A DNA stretch of 64,000 nt from an uncultured Verrucomicrobiae bacterium (GCA_963739345.1 CAVUAA010000001.1:1180714-1244713), one strand, 5' to 3'; positions 9,555-63,589 are shown, counted from the stretch's first letter. Made by a program: numbers and translations. The notes: generated by a model from the sequence alone, not told the origin.

Positions 9555-9917
9555 CTAGCCACAGGTTCCCTCACCGCAGCTTCCCTCGTCCGACTTGTCC
9601 TCTTCTTCTGGCTTAGGATCGCCGCCACAAGTTCCCTCACCGCAAGACCCTTCGTCAGTCTTTCCCTCTTCAGCGGCAGCAGTAACTGAGCGCCAGTTGT
9701 AGCGGCTCTGCTTCTTCCCATCCTCAGGACGCTTTGGTCGCGGACACTTTCCGTCTTGGCAGGCCGCCAGCGGCTCTTCGTTGTTCAGCAGCTTGCTTCG
9801 CACATTGCTCCCCGACCCCAGATCGCAATAGTCGGTCATGGCTTGTAAGCCCTGTGTGCTGAGCACACCGGCTACCAATGTTCCCGCCGCGAGGGCTATA
9901 ATCTTCGTCTTGTCCAT
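9555..9917 (-). CDS. Secreted Cys-rich RiPP precursor with tandem EGxCG repeats (HvfA/oxazolin-like)
   Basis: 120 aa. Signal peptide MDKTKIIALAAGTLVAGVLSTQGLQA, 7 Cys, C-terminal repeat DEGSCGEGTCG x2 (coded at 9624-9656 and 9558-9590). GGAGGAG Shine-Dalgarno lies upstream of the ATG. Confidence 0.7.
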   Translation of the reverse strand: MDKTKIIALAAGTLVAGVLSTQGLQAMTDYCDLGSGSNVRSKLLNNEEPLAACQDGKCPRPKRPEDGKKQSRYNWRSVTAAAEEGKTDEGSCGEGTCGGDPKPEEEDKSDEGSCGEGTCG

Positions 9918-9966
9918 CTACTCCTCCATTTAGGTGATTGACGTTAACAATCCCTAACGTAGCGAT

Positions 9967-11506: not shown

Positions 11507-13087
11507 ATGCGCACTGATGTCCTCACCGAAAAAATATTTGATCTTCTCGTGATCGGCGGCGGCGCCACCGGCGCTGGCATAGCCCTTGACGCCGCCACCC
11601 GCGGTCTCGAAGTGGCTCTTGTCGAGCGGGATGACTTCGCGGCCGGCACCTCCTCCCGAAGCACTAAGCTCATTCACGGCGGCGTCCGCTACCTTGAGAG
11701 CGCCATCAAACACCTCGACGCCAAAGAATTTCACTTAGTAACGGATGCGCTTGAAGAGCGCAAAACCCTCCTCAACCTCGCCCCCCACCTCACTAGGCCC
11801 CTTCCCCTCGTCACCCCCCTCTACTCTTGGATGGACCTCCCCTACTACGTCGCCGGCCTCAAGCTCTACGACTGGATCTCCCGCAAATCGAGCCTTGGCG
11901 CCTCCACCTTCATCTCCGCCGCCCACGCCCTCCAGCGATTTCCTATGCTAAAAAAAGAGGGGCTCAAAGGAGCAGTCATCTATTACGACGGCCAATTCAA
12001 CGACGCCCGGATGAACGTCGCCATCGCCCTCACCGCCGACAAACAGGGAGCCGCTGTCTGCAATCACGTCGAAGTGACCAATTTCATCGATGGCGGAGCC
12101 CGCTGCCGCGACACCCTCAATGATCACTCCTTCGACATCCGCGCCAAAACCATCATCAACGCCACCGGCCCCTTCGCCGACACCCTCTGCAAACTCGACA
12201 ATCCCGACCACACGCCGCTCATCGCCCCAAGCTCCGGCGTCCACATCATCATCGACGCCAAGTTCTCACCCCCCGGCACCGGACTCCTCATCCCCCACAC
12301 AGAAGATGGCCGCGTCCTCTTCCTCCTCCCATGGGAAAACGCCACCCTCGCCGGCACCACAGATAATCCCTGTGACATCACATCCACTCCCCGCCCTCAC
12401 GCCGAAGAGGTGGACTACATCCTCCGCCACCTCAACCACACCTTCGATCTCAAGATCACCCGCAAAGATGTCCGCGCCGCCTGGTCGGGCATCCGACCGC
12501 TCGCCCGCAACCCCGAAGCCAAATCCACCGCCGACCTCGCCCGCGACCACGTCATTACCGCCAGCCCCTCAGGCCTCATTACCATCGTCGGCGGCAAGTG
12601 GACCACCTACAGGCGGATGGCTCTGCAAGCCGTTGACAAGGCGATCGAAGTGGGCGATCTCTCCCCCGCCGGCCCCTCCCTCTCCGCCACCACACTTCTT
12701 GACGGTGCCGACGGATTTACACCCCAACTCAAAACGTCGCTCGAAGCCGAATATGCCCTCGACCACGACATCGCCTCCCACCTTGCCCACTGCTACGGCG
12801 TCCACGCCACCACCCTCGCCGCCCAACAGCAATACAAGCGGCTTAGCCCCGACTACCCTTTCATTGAAGCCGAAGTGACCTACGGCGCCCGCCACGAGCT
12901 CGCCCTCACCGCCACCGACATGATTGCCCGCCGCATGCGCCTCGCCTTTCTCGATCAACAAGCCACCCTCACCGCCCTCCCCCGCATTATCGAATTGATG
13001 GCCGCCGTCCACTTCTGGGACCCAAACCGTTGCGCACAAGAGCTCGAAAAGGCACAATTCTTTCTAGAAACAATGAGAGCGTCATGA
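11507..13087 (+). CDS. glpD: FAD-dependent glycerol-3-phosphate dehydrogenase
   Basis: N-terminal [35 protein letters not shown]-terminal GlpD-type domain. ATG at 11507 preferred over TTG at 11471. Confidence 0.85.
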
Positions 13088-13671
13088 ACTTTACCCTCCA
13101 ACTTGGCGAACAGGCCCCCGATTTCTCCCTCCCCGCCACCGACGGCCGCACCTACTCCGTACAAGACTTCGCCACCTACCCCGCCCTCTGCATCTTCTTC
13201 ACCTGCAACCACTGCCCCTATGTGCGCAACTCCGACGAAAACACACGCGTCCTTGTCGAAAAATATCAACCCCAAGGGGTTGCCTTTGTCGCCATCAACT
13301 CCAACTCCGAAGAGACCGTCCCCGAAGACTCCTTTGCCCACATGATTACCCGCATGGATGAAGAGGGTTTCCCCTGGCTCTACCTACGCGACGAGTCCCA
13401 GCAAACAGCGCTCGCCTACGGCGCCCTTCGCACTCCCCACTTCTACCTCTTTGATAAAGAGCGCACCCTCATCTACACCGGCCACGCCATCGAAAACCCC
13501 CGCCGCCCTGAAAAAAGCCACACCCACGAGCTACAAAACGCCCTCGACCAACACCTTGCAGGCGAGACCATCACCACCCCCCTCACCAATCCCGTCGGCT
13601 GCAACGTCAAATGGAAAGGGCACGACCGCCACTGGATGCCCCCGGACGCCTGCGACCTCGTCTCGATTTAA
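13084..13671 (+). CDS. Thioredoxin-fold protein (AhpC/TSA-TlpA-like, CxxC)
   Basis: [10 protein letters not shown] redox motif. ATG at 13084 overlaps the glpD stop (ATGA). Confidence 0.75.
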
Positions 13672-14651: not shown

Positions 14652-16250
14652 CTAGCGTTTCTGTCCCACCGTCACAACGGTCCCATCAAACTTCGTTAGA
14701 GTGAAGCCCTCGAAATTCTCATTAAAGAGGAACGACTCATTGTCGAGCACATCGATCGCAATCTTCTCGCCCAAGTTCATCCCATCAAACCCATCGCTCC
14801 GGTAGTGAACACCAGCGTGATCGCGACCAAGCGCAATATTGGCCGCCAACTTATTTAACTCTCCCCCAACCGTGAGCATAGCTGCTACTGGCACCAGCGT
14901 ATCATTGGCTCCATTAGGCTCGACCGGATTCGGAATCACAAATTGCTCGTTGAAAAGAGCCTTCAGCACAGTAACCGCCGCCCCCATCAACACGGCGTGA
15001 CCCGCCGGATAGGAAGGGTGAACCGGACTCCCCTCCGGATAGGCGAGGGGAAGAAAGTAAGAGTTGTAAGCGCTAAAAATCGCAGGAAGCGCAGCAGAGC
15101 TGATCAGCTGAGGATTGATCCCCTGATTAACAGCACCAGAGACTTGCTGCTGAACATAGAACCCATATTCCTCAGGACGGAGCCGCCTGTTCACCTGCCA
15201 CTTATGGAACCACGCAGCTTTTAGCCCCTCTTGAATGGCCTCCCGCAACAGAGTCATGTACTCGCTGATCCCAAACGTAACGAAACCATCCTGGGTCGGA
15301 TTGTTGATGTAGGGGTTCGCTGGGTCAAGTGCCGCCGCGCCGTACGTATTAAGCAATAGAAGAGCTCCAAATGCCGCTTGGCCCGGCGAATCTTGATGCA
15401 CATATTCAGTGAGATCACGCGGCGTACGCAGGAAGTGCGCCATACCATCGTAGGCAATTGCGCCGGCTGCCGCCCCGCCTGTCTCCACCTGGAGCCAGAG
15501 CGGGAAGGTGGTGACAAAGTCATTTGCCGTGCCGGCCGTAGGGACCCGGTAGTTTTGAGGAACAGTCGTCGCCCCAAACGGAATCGTTTGGTAGAGAAAC
15601 TGAGAAATGTAGGGCCCGATCAAGTCTCCAGGAGTGTTGCCGCGAAGAAACGTCGCAGGCGTCACCATTCCTGCAACTTTGGGCCCCCTAAAGTCGGTGA
15701 GCATATTAAGATTCGCAACAGCGCTTGCGACCGTTGCATCTGCGCCAAATGCATTGAACGGCACATCTCTTACCAAAGCAGTCCAGTAGAGCTCAACCAT
15801 CTCTCCTGCAGTCTGAGCCGATGCAAACGTTGGCGCTGGAGGTATCGCATGCAGCCAAGCGTCGTTGCCCGCTAGTGAAAAGGCGAGCGAGCCTTGAGGG
15901 TTAACCATCCGAAAGATCCCCTGACCCACCAAAATCGAGTTGAAATCAAAGTCGAGACCGGTCGAGAGAGCTCTAACTAATGACTGAAATGCCGGTGTGC
16001 TAGCAAATCCAGTCGTTTGATGCTGCAGTCCCTTGTTGAAGCTGCCGCGCAAATCAGCATAGCGCTGCTCATCACCGTTCTGAGGCTGCGGAGCCAGAGA
16101 AATCCTCTCATCAAAACCGGCAACTTCGGCCTTCACCGTATGCGCAGTCACCTGCCTTTCAAACCGCTGGAGGCGTAAGAACTCCGCGTCCGAAATAGCA
16201 GAAAGAGTCACCACAGGAATAAGTGCTGCTGCAACGATTAGCCGATTCAT
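14652..16250 (-). CDS. Secreted vanadium-dependent haloperoxidase-like / PAP2-superfamily enzyme
   Basis: Motifs KWQVNRRLRPEE, HPSYPAGHA, GRDHAGVHYRSDG. ATG at 16250 (MNRLIVAAALIPVVTLSA signal peptide) with GGAGG 6 nt upstream. Confidence 0.7.
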   Translation of the reverse strand: MNRLIVAAALIPVVTLSAISDAEFLRLQRFERQVTAHTVKAEVAGFDERISLAPQPQNGDEQRYADLRGSFNKGLQHQTTGFASTPAFQSLVRALSTGLDFDFNSILVGQGIFRMVNPQGSLAFSLAGNDAWLHAIPPAPTFASAQTAGEMVELYWTALVRDVPFNAFGADATVASAVANLNMLTDFRGPKVAGMVTPATFLRGNTPGDLIGPYISQFLYQTIPFGATTVPQNYRVPTAGTANDFVTTFPLWLQVETGGAAAGAIAYDGMAHFLRTPRDLTEYVHQDSPGQAAFGALLLLNTYGAAALDPANPYINNPTQDGFVTFGISEYMTLLREAIQEGLKAAWFHKWQVNRRLRPEEYGFYVQQQVSGAVNQGINPQLISSAALPAIFSAYNSYFLPLAYPEGSPVHPSYPAGHAVLMGAAVTVLKALFNEQFVIPNPVEPNGANDTLVPVAAMLTVGGELNKLAANIALGRDHAGVHYRSDGFDGMNLGEKIAIDVLDNESFLFNENFEGFTLTKFDGTVVTVGQKR

Positions 16251-16261
16251 TTCCAACCTCC

Positions 16262-16993
16262 CTAAAACGTATATCCAACCAGCGCGCGCAAGCCGCCATT
16301 CAGCCGCCAAAGTCGCGGAATCGTAAGCATCGCGCCAGCCGAATTATTCACTCGTACCGCACCGAACCGGTTCCAATCAAAAAATGGGACCAATTCAAGT
16401 GTCAGGCAGCGGCAGATGTGAATTTGTTTCTGACAGGGGAGCTGAACGCGGAAGCCGTGCCCCCACGACGGGCTCAAATCGATGCCGATCAGCGTCAGCT
16501 GTGACCACATATCGGGTCGCCACTCAAACTGCACACCACACCGCCAATCACAAACCGGTCGCCACAAGTAAAATCCAATTGGAAAGAACACCTTGTCGTA
16601 TTGATAGAGTAGATTGGCCGCCCCCGGATCTTGCCGATTCTGGAACCGATCCCAGCCCACTCCCAGATAGGGGGCAACTTCAAAACCACACCACCAGTAA
16701 CTCGTCCCCACCTGAAGCTCGAGGAAGTACTCCGACAAATCACTTCTCTGGCACGGCCGTCCCGTGATCGGCCCCGCGTCCCAAGTCCCCTCAAAACCGA
16801 GCGATGCAAAATAGCCGCAGTACCGCGTCGTTATCCCTGCGCTCACACCCGCCTGATATCCCTCCAGATCAGATGGATTGTTAAACGCCACTCGCGTGTA
16901 GTTGAAGTGAGGACCGACATATACGTCGTAGTTCAATGCTCCGAGCAGAGCGGGAAAGATCAATAAAAGAGCTGGTAGCAGGTAAGTGCGCAT
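16262..16993 (-). CDS. Putative outer-membrane beta-barrel protein
   Basis: Signal peptide MRTYLLPALLLIFPALLGA, alternating aromatic/Gly-rich strands, C-terminal ...LVGYTF. Its stop is 12 nt before the haloperoxidase start. Confidence 0.5.
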   Translation of the reverse strand: MRTYLLPALLLIFPALLGALNYDVYVGPHFNYTRVAFNNPSDLEGYQAGVSAGITTRYCGYFASLGFEGTWDAGPITGRPCQRSDLSEYFLELQVGTSYWWCGFEVAPYLGVGWDRFQNRQDPGAANLLYQYDKVFFPIGFYLWRPVCDWRCGVQFEWRPDMWSQLTLIGIDLSPSWGHGFRVQLPCQKQIHICRCLTLELVPFFDWNRFGAVRVNNSAGAMLTIPRLWRLNGGLRALVGYTF

Positions 16994-58327: not shown

Positions 58328-60424
58328 TCAACGGGGTTGGCCTAGTGCGTGGATCAGTTTGCCGGCGGTGAGCATCTGGGGGAGGATGACCGGCTGGTCT
58401 TCTGGGCCACCGGTGTAGAGGAGGTAGAGGGGGACGCCGTTGCGGCCATGCTTGGCCAGCTCTTCAGTGATCCGAGGATCCCGCTTGGTCCAGTCGGCTT
58501 CCATCATGACAACGCCCCGCTCATTGAACGCGGCGAGCACCTCCGTGCTGGCCATGGCCACCTTGTTGGCCTGACAGATCATGCACCACTTCGCGGTGAA
58601 GTCGACGAAGACAGGAACACCTGCAGCGCGCAGTTGATCAAACTTGTCGGGATCCCACTCCTGCCATCCATTTTCTTCAGAAGCGGTGCGGGCAATCTGG
58701 TTGGGAGGCTCGTTGCTCGCCTGATAGCCGACAAGGCCAGCAAAGGCGACAAGGAGGAGAGTGACGCCATAGGCGACATAGCGGCGGCTACGCTTAACAA
58801 GGGCTGTTCCCCACCGGCCGTAGACCCAGGCGCCAATGCCCATCACTAGAAGAGCGCCAAGCACCTTGATCAGGCCAATGCCCGACTGCACCTGCGCATC
58901 GAAGACCCAGAGGAGCCAGAGGACAGTGGCGAGCATGACAAAGCCCATGAGCTGCTTGAAGACGACCATCCATGGCCCCGGCTTGGGAAGCTTGTTGATG
59001 AGCTTAGGGAAGGCGGCCAGGAGAAGGTAAGGAGAGGCCATCCCGATACCCATCACAGTGAAGGTGAGGAGGGCGGCACTCGGCGGCAAGGTGACCGCAA
59101 CACCCAAGGCTGGAGCTAGGAGGGGACCTGTGCACGGGGTGGCGACCACAGTAGCCAGCACACCGCTAAAGAAGGTAGCCATAGCCCCCTTCTTTCCAGA
59201 GACCTTTCCTCCCAGCTGAGAGAGGGAGGTGCCAAATTCAAAGACACCTAGCAAACTCAATCCTAAAAGGAACATCACCCCGGTCAAAATCATCACAAAG
59301 AGGGGCTCTTGGAGCTGGAAGCCCCAGCCCACCCCTTCGCCATAAGCGCGGAGCACGAGCAGGATAATGGCTAAAATCCAAAATGAAACCACTACTCCAA
59401 GCGTGAATAGGGCGCCGTGTTTAAAAAGTTTTTTACGACTACTTCCCGACATGTTGACGAAGCTCAAAATTTTGAGCGAAATGACTGGAAGGACGCAGGG
59501 CATCAAATTCAAAATTAAACCACCCGCAAAGGCAAGGAGGAGGATCACCCCAAAACTCATGCCGCCAGCTGCCGCAATCGGCTCGGTCGCACCAGGTAGC
59601 GGAGCGTCCAATCCAAGTGGCATGTCGATCTGGAAGGAGGCGAGCACCTCTTTCTCTCCCATCAGGACAAGGACCCCGCTGAGCGCGACAGTGGAATCAA
59701 TCCCCTCTTCCGATGGGACGGCGAGGGTGAAGCCTGTAGCCGTCTTAGTCACCTCTTGGGCTGCGCTATAGTCAAATACCCCGTCCAATCCTGGATCTGG
59801 GAAGAAATAGGCGCTCTCGACCTTGGTGCCAGCAGTCTTGACATCGAGGAGGACCTTGTCCCCATCATGCGTAGCTGCAACGGCTTGTGTAGCTGCGGGG
59901 ATATGGTCTCGAGCTGTTGCAAACAGCTCAGTGTGCTGGGGATCTGCTTTGGGGGCCTGAGTCAGGACGGGGATTGAGAGCTTCTTCTCTGCACCACCCG
60001 GCACACAGCTATCGTTACAGACAACCCAGCGAGCTGAGAGGCCAATATCTATCGCCTCCGCCTCAATCGCCTCAGGAGTGGTGATCTTCGCTAGAAGGGT
60101 AAGCGAACGCTCGTAGCCGTAGCCCACGAGGCCGCTAGACTCAAACCTCTGAGGATGAGGCCATTGCACATCGGCAACCTCAAACCCTTTAGGAAGATCC
60201 CAGTCGAGCTGAGGGGCGAGGCCTGCCTCACCCGGATTCTTCCAATAGACGTGCCACCCCTCTTCCATCTCCAGGCGGGCGGCCACCCAAATGGGCTCTC
60301 CAGCCTGAACTGACTGATGCTCAGCAGCTAACTCCAGCTGAACCGGGTGAGCAGGGGCCTCCTCTTGCGCTGCCAAAGGCAGCACTGCGACGAGAGCACC
60401 AACTAGGAAGTAACGTAGCTTCAT
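58328..60424 (-). CDS. dsbD: Thiol:disulfide interchange protein DsbD (N-terminal DsbD-alpha, TM core, C-terminal thioredoxin)
   Basis: 698 aa. TM-core Cys motifs LNLMPCVLPV and VATPCTGPL, C-terminal FTAKWCMICQ. Confidence 0.85.
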   Translation of the reverse strand: MKLRYFLVGALVAVLPLAAQEEAPAHPVQLELAAEHQSVQAGEPIWVAARLEMEEGWHVYWKNPGEAGLAPQLDWDLPKGFEVADVQWPHPQRFESSGLVGYGYERSLTLLAKITTPEAIEAEAIDIGLSARWVVCNDSCVPGGAEKKLSIPVLTQAPKADPQHTELFATARDHIPAATQAVAATHDGDKVLLDVKTAGTKVESAYFFPDPGLDGVFDYSAAQEVTKTATGFTLAVPSEEGIDSTVALSGVLVLMGEKEVLASFQIDMPLGLDAPLPGATEPIAAAGGMSFGVILLLAFAGGLILNLMPCVLPVISLKILSFVNMSGSSRKKLFKHGALFTLGVVVSFWILAIILLVLRAYGEGVGWGFQLQEPLFVMILTGVMFLLGLSLLGVFEFGTSLSQLGGKVSGKKGAMATFFSGVLATVVATPCTGPLLAPALGVAVTLPPSAALLTFTVMGIGMASPYLLLAAFPKLINKLPKPGPWMVVFKQLMGFVMLATVLWLLWVFDAQVQSGIGLIKVLGALLVMGIGAWVYGRWGTALVKRSRRYVAYGVTLLLVAFAGLVGYQASNEPPNQIARTASEENGWQEWDPDKFDQLRAAGVPVFVDFTAKWCMICQANKVAMASTEVLAAFNERGVVMMEADWTKRDPRITEELAKHGRNGVPLYLLYTGGPEDQPVILPQMLTAGKLIHALGQPR

Positions 60425-61585: not shown

Positions 61586-62240
61586 AGTTCTGGTAGCCGC
61601 CGTCGCAGCTGCCCACCTGCTCGCTCTTCTGGTCTTTGTTATCTCCAAGACACCACCTCCCATCCAGAAAGCACCGACGCAGTTTGTCGTCCACACGGTG
61701 AAACTCAAGCCGCCACCTCCGAAACCGAAACCTCAACCAGCACCCCAACCCGTTGTCGTCGCTACGCCAGAGCCTAAACCCAAACCAGCACCAAAGCCGT
61801 CACCCAAACCCAAGCCGGTCGTCGTCGCCGCGAAAAAACCGACACCAAAATCCAAACCAAAACCACAGTCTAAGACGAAACCACAACCCCCAAATAATCG
61901 ACTTGCAAAGCTTGTACAGGAGGCGCAAGATAAGTTGTCAAAAGTTGATGAAAAGGTGAAGCATACGCCGGTGGCAATCGACCAGAGTTCGTATGAAAAG
62001 GAGCTGGCCGAACGACTCCGCCTCCTTCTCAAGCTACCTGAGTGGGGAAGCGTCCGAGTCGCGCTCACCCTTAACCGCAGCGGAGCAGTTTGTGGAGTGA
62101 AGATCCTAAATGCGCAGAATGAGGCCAACAGCGACTACGTTGCCGACCGCCTCACCGGACGGACGCTAGCTCCCTTTGACAAGCACTTTTCTGGCGAACA
62201 ACAACACACCTTCACCCTAACGCTAAACAATGAGCTCTGA
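61563..62240 (+). CDS. TolA/TonB-like protein (N-terminal TM anchor, Pro/Lys-rich spacer, small C-terminal domain)
   Basis: [19 protein letters not shown] anchor, [14 protein letters not shown]...[13 protein letters not shown] spacer. Position between tolR and tolB. Confidence 0.6.
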
Positions 62241-63589
62241 TGATTAAGCAAACCCTCCTTCTCCTCTTCCTCCCCGTCGCTCTCTTCGCCAACGACATTA
62301 CCATTAAACTGGCGACCGAGAAGCAACTCCTCCCCGTCTACGTCGCCTCGTGGACAGCTGGCAAGAGGGACCCCGCGCTAAACAACAACCACCTCCGCGA
62401 GCTCCATCGCCTACTGCAGTTCGATCTCAACTACAATGGCCGGACCGAGGTAGCCTCGTCGAATCCCGAACGGAAGGCGCAGGTGGCCAACGAGCGGATG
62501 GACGGCCGCCCCAATGCCGAGGCTTGGCGCAATTTGAGCATCGCCTATCTCGTCCGCGGCCATGTGAGTGGAAGTACTCTCGCCATCAAGGTGTTCTCCA
62601 CATCAAGTGACTCCAACGTCGGCGTCTATGAAGTGCCCCTTTCCGGCGAGGTGGCAGTCGATCGGCAGCGGGTCCATCAGCTCTCCGACACCGTCCATCG
62701 CGCTCTCTTTGGGACGCCCGGCATCGCCAGCAGCCGCATCCTCTACACCGTGAAGGACAAAACAGCCGGTGGAGAGCAGCCGCGCGCCGAGGTGTGGATT
62801 GCCGACTATGATGGTTCGGGACCAAAACAGTTGACCCATGACGGTGACTTCACCGTCACCCCCCTCTTCCTCCCTCCGGCTGAGGGAAAAAGAAGCGGCG
62901 CCTACTTCTACGTCTCGTACAAGACCGGCCAGCCAAAAATCTACCTCTCCTCCCTCGACAACAATCACGCTAGGCCGCTCACCACTCTTAAGGGCAATCA
63001 GCTGATGCCAAACATCTCTAAGGATCAGCACCAGATCGCCTTTGTTAGCGATGCCGCCGGCAACCCCGACCTCTTTCTCCTTTCCTTCAACCCCGAAACG
63101 GGAGCACAGGGAAAACCCCGACAGATCTTTTCACAGAGAGCGAGCGCCCAAGCCTCCCCCTCCTTCAGCCCCGACGGCACCCGCCTCGCCTTCGTCTCCA
63201 ACAAAGATGGCACGCCGCGCATCTACATCTTAGAGCTTCCCGCCCCTGGCCAAAAACCAACTGGCGAGCCCCACCTGATCACCCGTCGCAACCGGGACAA
63301 CACCGCCCCCTCCTGGTCGCCCGACGGCAAAAGGATTGCCTACAGCTCCATGACCCACGGAGTGCGGCAAATTTGGATCTATGAGACCGCAACCGGCGAG
63401 GAGTGGCAGCTCACCCACGGCACCTCTGGCAAAGAAAATCCATCTTGGGCCCCCAACAGCCTCCACCTCGTCTTCAACTCCGCCACCCCTTCTGGCTCCG
63501 AGCTCTACATGGTCAACCTCAACCAGCCCAAAGCGGTCCGCCTCACCTCCGGCCCCGGCGAAAAACGTTTTCCCTCTTGGGAAAAATAG
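62240..63589 (+). CDS. tolB: TolB periplasmic beta-propeller protein
   Basis: 449 aa, signal peptide, repeated S(F/W)SPDG(T/K)R(L/I)A(F/Y) blades. Confidence 0.85.
   Translation: MIKQTLLLLFLPVALFANDITIKLATEKQLLPVYVASWTAGKRDPALNNNHLRELHRLLQFDLNYNGRTEVASSNPERKAQVANERMDGRPNAEAWRNLSIAYLVRGHVSGSTLAIKVFSTSSDSNVGVYEVPLSGEVAVDRQRVHQLSDTVHRALFGTPGIASSRILYTVKDKTAGGEQPRAEVWIADYDGSGPKQLTHDGDFTVTPLFLPPAEGKRSGAYFYVSYKTGQPKIYLSSLDNNHARPLTTLKGNQLMPNISKDQHQIAFVSDAAGNPDLFLLSFNPETGAQGKPRQIFSQRASAQASPSFSPDGTRLAFVSNKDGTPRIYILELPAPGQKPTGEPHLITRRNRDNTAPSWSPDGKRIAYSSMTHGVRQIWIYETATGEEWQLTHGTSGKENPSWAPNSLHLVFNSATPSGSELYMVNLNQPKAVRLTSGPGEKRFPSWEK

Follow-up and report, generated by a model that had tools for sequence, protein, structure and literature searches.

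We propose that a small open reading frame (ORF) in a 64,000-nucleotide stretch of DNA, deposited as an uncultured Verrucomicrobiae bacterium (GCA_963739345.1, CAVUAA010000001.1:1180714-1244713) and here called the window, probably encodes an HvfA-type captophorin precursor. By analogy with characterized systems, the peptide would be exported by the Sec pathway and its cysteines would be converted to copper-binding 5-thiooxazoles. The gene lies at 9555..9917 on the minus strand and specifies 120 amino acids, signal peptide included; it starts with ATG, ends with TAG at 9555-9557, and has a Shine-Dalgarno sequence, GGAGG, that can be read 5 nt upstream of the start codon (9923..9927, minus strand). 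It heads four genes in the order hvfA-hvfB-hvfC-hvfX, which overlap or abut one another and are all intact. The gene content, order, and overlaps of this cluster, its family assignments, its conservation and purifying selection, and the agreement of its Cys contexts with the substrate rules of the enzyme pair FonBC were all read directly from the sequences compared here.

Three related systems have been characterized. HvfA of Haemophilus influenzae, FonA of Fontimonas, and NgoA of Neisseria gonorrhoeae are precursors with Sec signals in which an MNIO-PME1 pair oxidizes the Cys of EGKCG units, each with a change of -4 Da; every CG-Cys becomes a 5-thiooxazole, and the products bind copper (PMC13097082). 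The HvfA product was first assigned as an oxazolone/thioamide (PMC11252979), and the structure was later revised to the 5-thiooxazole in the work that named the class captophorins (PMC13097082, Gadgil et al. 2026).

The enzymes encoded beside the window ORF belong to the same families. The product of hvfB (8732..9562, minus strand) is an MNIO/DUF692 protein that scores 362.5 on NF003818 (cutoff 360) and matches PF05114 (1.4e-95) and PDB entry 3BWW (4.8e-66); it retains the Arg-Arg pair (R15/R16 of FonB) and the catalytic Asp, as does HvfB of H. influenzae. On the BufB model NF050167 it reaches 271 (cutoff 310). The next gene, hvfC (8008..8748, minus strand), encodes a DUF2063 and NGO1945_C protein, an MNIO partner of type 1 that includes an RRE-type domain, whose matches to PF09836 (5.3e-15) and PF22106 (1.4e-07) both lie above the gathering scores. 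The fourth, hvfX (7568..8020, minus strand), encodes a DoxX membrane protein (NF050144, 88.6 against a cutoff of 80; PF07681, 1.1e-14). The probable GTG start of hvfB, at 9562, overlaps the last codons of the precursor by 8 nt and gives the N-terminus MASGVGMGFRR, matching the MVxGVGLGFRR of relatives. A longer ORF, 8732..9721, was rejected as the extent of hvfB: it runs across part of the precursor gene in a different frame, and the GTG is the start that fits the N-termini of relatives. The GEG codons of the last precursor repeat (ggtgaggga; 9558-9575) supply a GAGG that resembles a Shine-Dalgarno sequence and lies about 7 nt ahead of this GTG, so that repeat-coding DNA doubles as the ribosome-binding site of hvfB, which suggests translational coupling.

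The 94 residues after LQA contain seven Cys (C31, C53, C58, C92, C97, C114, and C119), in the contexts DYC (C31), AAC (C53), and GKC (C58) and in two sets of GSCG and GTCG. The latter form two copies of DEGSCGEGTCG, core repeat 1 at 9624..9656 (minus strand; C92 and C97) and core repeat 2 at 9558..9590 (minus strand; C114 and C119), with the linker GDPKPEEEDKS between them. The second copy is the C-terminus of the peptide, the stop codon following directly on its final Gly. A first-pass annotation had described this architecture, with the same ORF, 94-residue region, Cys contexts, linker, coordinates, and ending on the last repeat, and all of it is present as described. It had also noted that the copies differ synonymously: they are identical in protein, and of their 33 bases 6 differ, in every case synonymously (codon pairs GAA/GAG, GGG/GGA, TCT/AGC, and ACT/ACC). 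The duplication is wider than 11 residues, reading EE(G/D)K(T/S)DEGSCGEGTCG, and the exact 11-residue repeat is far beyond chance, for when the mature peptide was shuffled 100,000 times the longest repeat was at most 7 residues.

As the same annotation had observed, the core Cys are preceded by Ser, Thr, Ser, and Thr, and in none of the four by Lys; GKC occurs only in a degenerate upstream unit. In vitro, FonBC accepts Ala, Arg, or Thr at this position (position 3 of the unit), where only Phe and Glu are rejected; it needs Gly or Ala after the Cys, rejects Pro and charged residues there, and requires a double repeat (PMC13097082). It also processes the variant EATCGEGTCG (PMC13097082), a double repeat of the unit type found in the window, and NgoA naturally carries three EGSCG units beside its EGKCG units (PMC13097082). 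The E-G-(S/T)-C-G units of the window satisfy these rules at all four core Cys, which are thus the predicted 5-thiooxazole sites. Within the clade of the window the Cys is preceded by S, T, R, H, G, or K, and this variation points to a lack of constraint at the position and not to a new specificity. Repeat-type precursors of an "Other repeat" class make up 508 of 6347 (PMC13097082, Gadgil et al.), and to judge by its units the window peptide would fall among them.

The N-terminus has, by eye, the features of a Sec-type signal peptide (MDKTKIIALAAGTLVAGVLSTQGLQA; residues 1-26; 9840..9917, minus strand): a K-rich n-region, a 14-residue hydrophobic core, Ala at -1, and Leu at -3. The segment is nearly invariant in an alignment of five homologues, and AlphaFold places a helix at residues 4-18. 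We infer cleavage after LQA26, which would leave a 94-residue mature peptide starting MTDYC. Signal peptides are the rule among precursors of the HvfA/bufferin type (PMC12452194). Cys31 was considered as a lipobox Cys and dismissed, the L-(A/S)-(G/A)-C context being absent. In a comparison with known precursor families, the peptide scores 20.4 bits on NF050137 (KCGExKCG_twice), the NCBIfam domain model of the HvfA family, against a cutoff of 19.5. Pfam returns no DUF2282 match at E <= 1 and otherwise only subthreshold chance matches (Haemadin, FPP).

Between the signal peptide and the core lies a leader-like motif (DLGSGSNVRSKLL; residues 32-44; 9786..9824, minus strand), a putative recognition region for HvfC and its RRE-type domain. 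The pattern (L/M/I/V)G(S/T/N/A)(G/A/S)xx(V/L/I)R occurs in 71 of 72 precursors adjoining related HvfB genes, from Bacteroidota, Ignavibacteriota, Calditrichota, and Chlamydiota, and the precursors beside these 72 genes share one layout, in which a signal peptide is followed by an LGSGxEVR-type motif, then a spacer and xCGxGxCG repeats. It is most likely that the RRE-type domain of HvfC binds this motif; an alanine scan of FonA, which reads SDLGAGYM where the window peptide reads CDLGSGSN, identified no single essential residue (PMC13097082). Cys31 (codon 9825..9827, minus strand) stands immediately before the motif and aligns with the Ser of the FonA SDLGAG. It is invariant in the five closest homologues and missing from L083, L084, L086, and L090 (relatives are designated by L and P numbers). 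Because the next residue is Asp, a disfavored context, Cys31 is predicted to escape modification and probably stays a thiol.

The remaining two Cys belong to a degenerate first unit, CQDGKCPRP (C53-x4-C58; 9735..9761, minus strand), which takes the clade-wide form C-x-(D/G/N)-G-(K/T)-C-(P/G/S). It occupies the place of the first (E/A)xKCG unit of relatives ("ELKCG..."), 20-35 residues past the leader motif, and in L086 (ACRNGKCG) and L090 (ACKDGKCG) it is a barely degenerate unit of the EGKCG type. The Gln after C53 and the Pro after C58 break the FonBC rules, and both Cys are therefore predicted to remain unmodified. HvfA contains a comparable N-terminal C-x4-C, also with Lys before the second Cys (PCVGDKCV; ACQDGKCP in the window), whose C38 and C43 are unmodified and form a disulfide, and mutation of which yields partially processed products (PMC11252979). 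By this analogy C53 and C58 most likely form a disulfide as well. When 1.84 billion representatives were searched with a profile built on residues 27-80, no more than three true clusters emerged, so that this stretch does not constitute a widespread domain; a fourth match, P0011, is a spurious low-complexity repeat protein.

Comparative evidence further supports a genuine gene that belongs with its neighbors. Relatives were gathered by protein searches and an HvfB-based contig scan; a profile scan of genome and metagenome contigs with the precursor alignment found nothing. The gene is syntenic in at least nine related loci. In L001, L002, L083, L084, L085, L086, and L090 a homologous small ORF fills the slot that separates lpxK from the MNIO gene, within a wider conserved order of AhpC, GlpD, GmhA, and LpxK, then precursor, MNIO, HvfC, and DoxX, then an SDF transporter and E2. 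Against its counterpart in L001 the precursor gene has a nonsynonymous rate (dN) of 0.18 and a synonymous rate (dS) of 2.2, that is, a dN/dS of 0.08; the gene is real and under strong purifying selection. When the loci of relatives were compared, no other conserved small ORF was found in the cluster. The pairing of this ORF with the DUF692-DUF2063 enzymes, which the first-pass annotation had proposed, is thus upheld by synteny, selection, and the lack of a conserved competitor.

The host, which that annotation had guessed to be a member of the Planctomycetes-Verrucomicrobia-Chlamydiae (PVC) group, is on sequence grounds a deep-branching member of the Chlamydiota. Its MnmG shares no more than 73% identity with any other sequence, so that the genome has no close sequenced relative, and the named best matches are Parachlamydiales, Parachlamydiaceae, and a metagenome-assembled genome labeled "Verrucomicrobia". 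The GC content of the window is 56% throughout, which is unusually high for Chlamydiota. The window also contains an ATP/ADP-translocase-type NTP transporter (31440-32834, minus strand) and a chlamydia-type TolB (PRK01029 equivalog; 62240-63589, plus strand). Eleven MNIO-PME1 clusters in Parachlamydiales have already been counted (Table S3 of PMC13097082). The cluster described here, set in a conserved housekeeping neighborhood (gmhA-lpxK ... SDF transporter-E2), would extend a recently defined and very widespread class of copper-binding peptides that are made on the ribosome and modified after translation (RiPPs: captophorins, oxazolins, and bufferins) into deep-branching, obligately intracellular Chlamydiota.

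The mechanism that we propose is drawn by homology at every step. A heterodimer of HvfB and HvfC would bind the 120-residue pre-peptide in the cytoplasm, where DLGSGxxVRSxLL probably helps HvfC to engage it. HvfB, dependent on iron and O2, would then oxidize C92, C97, C114, and C119 by four electrons each to 5-thiooxazoles, with a predicted loss of 4 Da per site and 16 Da in total. Sec export and cleavage by signal peptidase after LQA26 would release the 94-residue peptide into the periplasm, with C53 and C58 unmodified and most likely joined in a disulfide, as are C38 and C43 in HvfA of H. influenzae, and with C31 probably a thiol. The mature product would thus most likely contain 5-thiooxazoles at four Cys, a disulfide, and one spare thiol, and its two thiooxazole pairs would bind Cu(I) and buffer the periplasmic copper of an intracellular chlamydia. 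The four genes make a small set that can readily be expressed and that would reveal which of the seven Cys carry modifications.

Comparison with the known systems places the peptide among them and also shows where it departs. With HvfA of nontypeable H. influenzae (NTHi; NTHI1441, "oxazolin") it shares the Sec signal, C-terminal paired xGxCG units, and all four gene families. It differs in having two double repeats rather than three and Ser/Thr rather than Lys before Cys, and it adds the DLGSGxxVRSxLL motif, a basic RYNWR segment, and Cys31; the gene order is A-B-C-X, with DoxX last, and the host is a chlamydia. FonA (fontiphorin) and NgoA (gonophorin) are both dominated by EGKCG, are proteobacterial, have MNIOs with Phe250, and lack the CPRP unit. 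The precursors beside the closest HvfB relatives (55-65% identity) are EGKCG precursors from Bacteroidota, Ignavibacteriota, Calditrichota, and Chlamydiales SCGC AG-110-M15, that is, from the Fibrobacteres-Chlorobi-Bacteroidetes (FCB) and PVC groups. Like the window peptide, they have an (F/Y)xxLGSGxEVRSxL motif followed about 20-35 residues on by the first Cys, and many end in CG; unlike it, they carry Lys before 87% of their CG-Cys, and the pocket site of their HvfB, considered below, is occupied by Phe or Tyr. Bufferins (BufA1 with DUF2282, BufA2 with Buf_6/12Cys, and BufBC) share the enzyme superfamily, the partner type, and precursors with signal peptides, and they combine thiooxazole chemistry with a copper-buffering role (PMC12452194); the window precursor differs from them in lacking DUF2282 and in having a repeat-based instead of a folded core.

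Several observations weigh against the captophorin assignment. The precursor clears NF050137 by less than 1 bit and falls far below the HvfA equivalog model NF050188 (22.1 bits, cutoff 95). In its clade only L085 (22.2) also passes NF050137, which P0001-P0004, P0009, P0010, and L086 fail. The AlphaFold2 model of the precursor has no confident fold (mean predicted local distance difference test score, 44; predicted template modeling score, 0.15). HvfC scores 112.8 on NF050145, below the equivalog cutoff of 142, and a sequence search of the PDB with HvfC gave no match. The window HvfB has His in place of a conserved Phe, and the substrate rules of FonBC may not transfer to it exactly. Finally, copper buffering in a chlamydia would be an extrapolation from Proteobacteria. 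The model scores also mean that current annotation models miss most precursors of the chlamydial lineage.

The substituted Phe bears directly on whether the window system differs from known captophorins in kind. Asp249-Phe250 of FonB aligns with Asp247-His248 of the window HvfB (LLERDF against LLERDH), the 3BWW alignment likewise places His opposite Phe, and HvfB of H. influenzae also has Phe (LLERDFNFPPF). FonB Phe250 contacts Lys3 and Gly5 of the substrate and is conserved in enzymes of the Lys-Cys group, and the F250D variant has an altered substrate tolerance that includes an aromatic residue at position 3 (PMC13097082). Among 80 genome relatives the pocket residue is Phe in 55, Tyr in 24, and Leu in 1, and it is Phe or Tyr in 110 of the top 120 database homologues. 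Non-aromatic residues (His, Asn, Gly, Cys, or Ser) occur in the window and in L001, L002, L083, L084, L085, L086, L087 (labeled Simkania negevensis), L090, P0013, and P0048, and these enzymes are adjacent in a neighbor-joining tree. Core repeats are Lys-poor in all nine non-aromatic loci with a known precursor, whereas Lys precedes 310 of 358 CG-Cys (87%) in 72 loci whose HvfB has Phe or Tyr; the chlamydial relative Chlamydiales SCGC AG-110-M15 (L089) keeps both Phe and canonical EGKCG repeats.

One could read this association as enzyme and substrate having co-evolved into a distinct subclass, in which the altered HvfB pocket would favor a small polar residue before Cys or would modify Cys outside CG contexts (C53-Gln, C58-Pro, and Tyr-C31), to give a product with 5 to 7 heterocycles or with different metal properties. 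The contrast between non-aromatic and aromatic loci, the contacts of FonB Phe250 together with the changed tolerance of F250D, and the strong conservation of the C-x4-C-P-R-P unit in the clade all speak for such a change, which we nevertheless consider unlikely. The non-aromatic enzymes cluster in the tree, so that the Phe/Lys association amounts essentially to one evolutionary event, and it is one-directional. Thioalkalivibrio HvfB retains Phe (LLERDFNFPPL) beside a wholly Lys-less precursor, and L021, L037, L025, L059, and NgoB likewise combine Phe with Ser/Thr-Cys units; strict co-variation of Phe with Lys as a general rule was rejected on the Thioalkalivibrio control. Thr at position 3 is already accepted by wild-type FonBC, and the corresponding C-x4-C in HvfA carries no modification. 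Moreover, because the replacing residues vary (H, N, G, C, and S), the loss of Phe looks like relaxed constraint after the substrate Lys was gone rather than a new, selected specificity.

More specific is the conjecture that the Phe-less chlamydial HvfB co-evolved with Lys-free C-x4-C-P-R-P precursors and now modifies non-CG Cys or yields a different metal selectivity. We hold this to be quite improbable; if true, a fourth class of enzyme-substrate specificity would join Lys-Cys, Cys-Lys, and DUF2282. The lineage in any case offers a natural test of FonB Phe250 as a reader of the residues flanking the target Cys, since the Phe and the substrate Lys are both gone from it, whereas other bacteria have lost the Lys alone.

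The first-pass annotation had itself suggested a distinct substrate subclass, and that suggestion survives in part. There is indeed a chlamydial lineage with a conserved C-x4-C unit and without the pocket Phe, most of whose members score below the HvfA models. Lys-less units do not set it apart, however, since they are known from NgoA and Thioalkalivibrio, FonBC accepts Thr, and the window peptide passes NF050137. The Thioalkalivibrio protein (P0008) is named as HvfA family, scores 43.8 bits on that model, and has wholly Lys-less repeats, EG(A/S/T)CGEGTCG, made of the 5-mers that the window peptide carries; it differs in its four repeats, its proteobacterial-type leader without LGSGxxVR, its lack of the upstream C-x4-C, and a DoxX gene placed upstream. 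Nor do the two further marks that had been put forward distinguish a subclass: the upstream Cys have a precedent in C38/C43 of NTHi HvfA (PMC11252979), and 36 of 72 relatives end on, or at most 2 residues past, their last CG. The absence of Lys, the upstream Cys, and the repeat at the end thus all have precedents in characterized or annotated members. What is new is the CPRP unit with the basic RYNWR segment, a cognate MNIO that no longer has the pocket Phe, and the occurrence in Chlamydiota.

A different possibility is that the peptide is an unmodified Cys-rich periplasmic protein with a metal-binding or structural role, or part of a decaying cluster, the MNIO acting elsewhere or on nothing. 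There are only two double repeats, the scores on the HvfA models are marginal, P0003 has lost one repeat pair, and the HvfC calls in L002 and L084 are shortened. Yet the four genes of the window are intact and translationally coupled, purifying selection on the precursor is strong, the cluster has no other conserved small ORF, and a PME1 partner nearly always serves only the MNIO and Cys-rich precursor encoded next to it; these points leave the idea very improbable. That the Cys become oxazolone/thioamide pairs as in methanobactin (MbnA/MbnB/MbnC) can scarcely be credited: it has behind it the original HvfA assignment (PMC11252979) and the NCBIfam names, which still read "oxazolone/thioamide-modified", but alkylation-assisted heteronuclear multiple bond correlation on the hvf, fon, and ngo products gave 5-thiooxazole (PMC13097082), later preprints, to judge by their titles, use the thiooxazole assignment for HvfA, the methanobactin leader-core precursor has no signal peptide whereas that of the window has one, and the window HvfB scores 55.9 bits on the MbnB model TIGR04159 (cutoff 325). 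We thus retain the captophorin reading, with 5-thiooxazoles predicted at the four core Cys.

Several loci among the relatives deviate in their own ways. In L086 (GCA_018239785.1, labeled "Verrucomicrobia bacterium") two MNIO genes, 2749-3576 and 4001-4996, flank the precursor; the upstream enzyme reads VVLEREYNF, with Glu at the catalytic Asp of the others, and the downstream copy has an insertion of about 55 residues. The precursors of L025 (2558-2971) and L059 (Parachlamydiales, Rhabdochlamydiaceae), whose HvfB keeps Phe, carry the units QCGQAKCG, GTCGADN, ANCGAAG, and GTCGAAGASKG and have a Cys right after the predicted signal cleavage (NEVCAEE); judged by these sequences, they are a second divergent chlamydial precursor type. 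Some precursors of the Chitinophaga loci L076, L077, and L081 replace the Gly after Cys (EGKCTPGKCSPGKCAG; HKCSQGKCAEGKCVG), and in L076 the pocket site of the MNIO is occupied by Leu in place of Phe/Tyr; these loci add a further natural variation in Cys context. A Lys-less repeat protein, P0005 (EGSCGEGSCG...; L093:439-750), adjoins a pair formed by an ECF sigma factor and a DUF3379 anti-sigma; the 4.2 kb available for L093 contain no MNIO gene, and P0005 may be an orphan or a distally encoded precursor.

A terminator-like hairpin of 13 pairs followed by a T-run, found by a pattern scan 3' of hvfX (7458..7487, minus strand), is a possible operon end, although such sites are no commoner in the region than in shuffles and its position is only suggestive. 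The 49-nt gap after lpxK has no sigma-70-like site, and overall promoter counts are not above those in shuffles. Genes at 13030-13671 (plus strand), 14652-16310 (minus strand), and 4407-5006 (minus strand) include two conserved neighbors of the cluster, an AhpC/TSA-redoxin and a 552-residue protein whose syntenic counterpart in L001 is a VCPO_2nd (vanadium chloroperoxidase-like) gene, and also a DUF6624 gene; redox-related neighbors recur in the same surroundings of the cluster in several relatives. Farther away, the window encodes a Fic-domain protein (19747-21009, minus strand) with a weak match to adenylyltransferase/XopAC-type effectors, and a 698-residue DsbD/TsoB-like thiol-disulfide protein (58328-60424, minus strand) that could bear on the periplasmic redox handling of the Cys-rich peptide.

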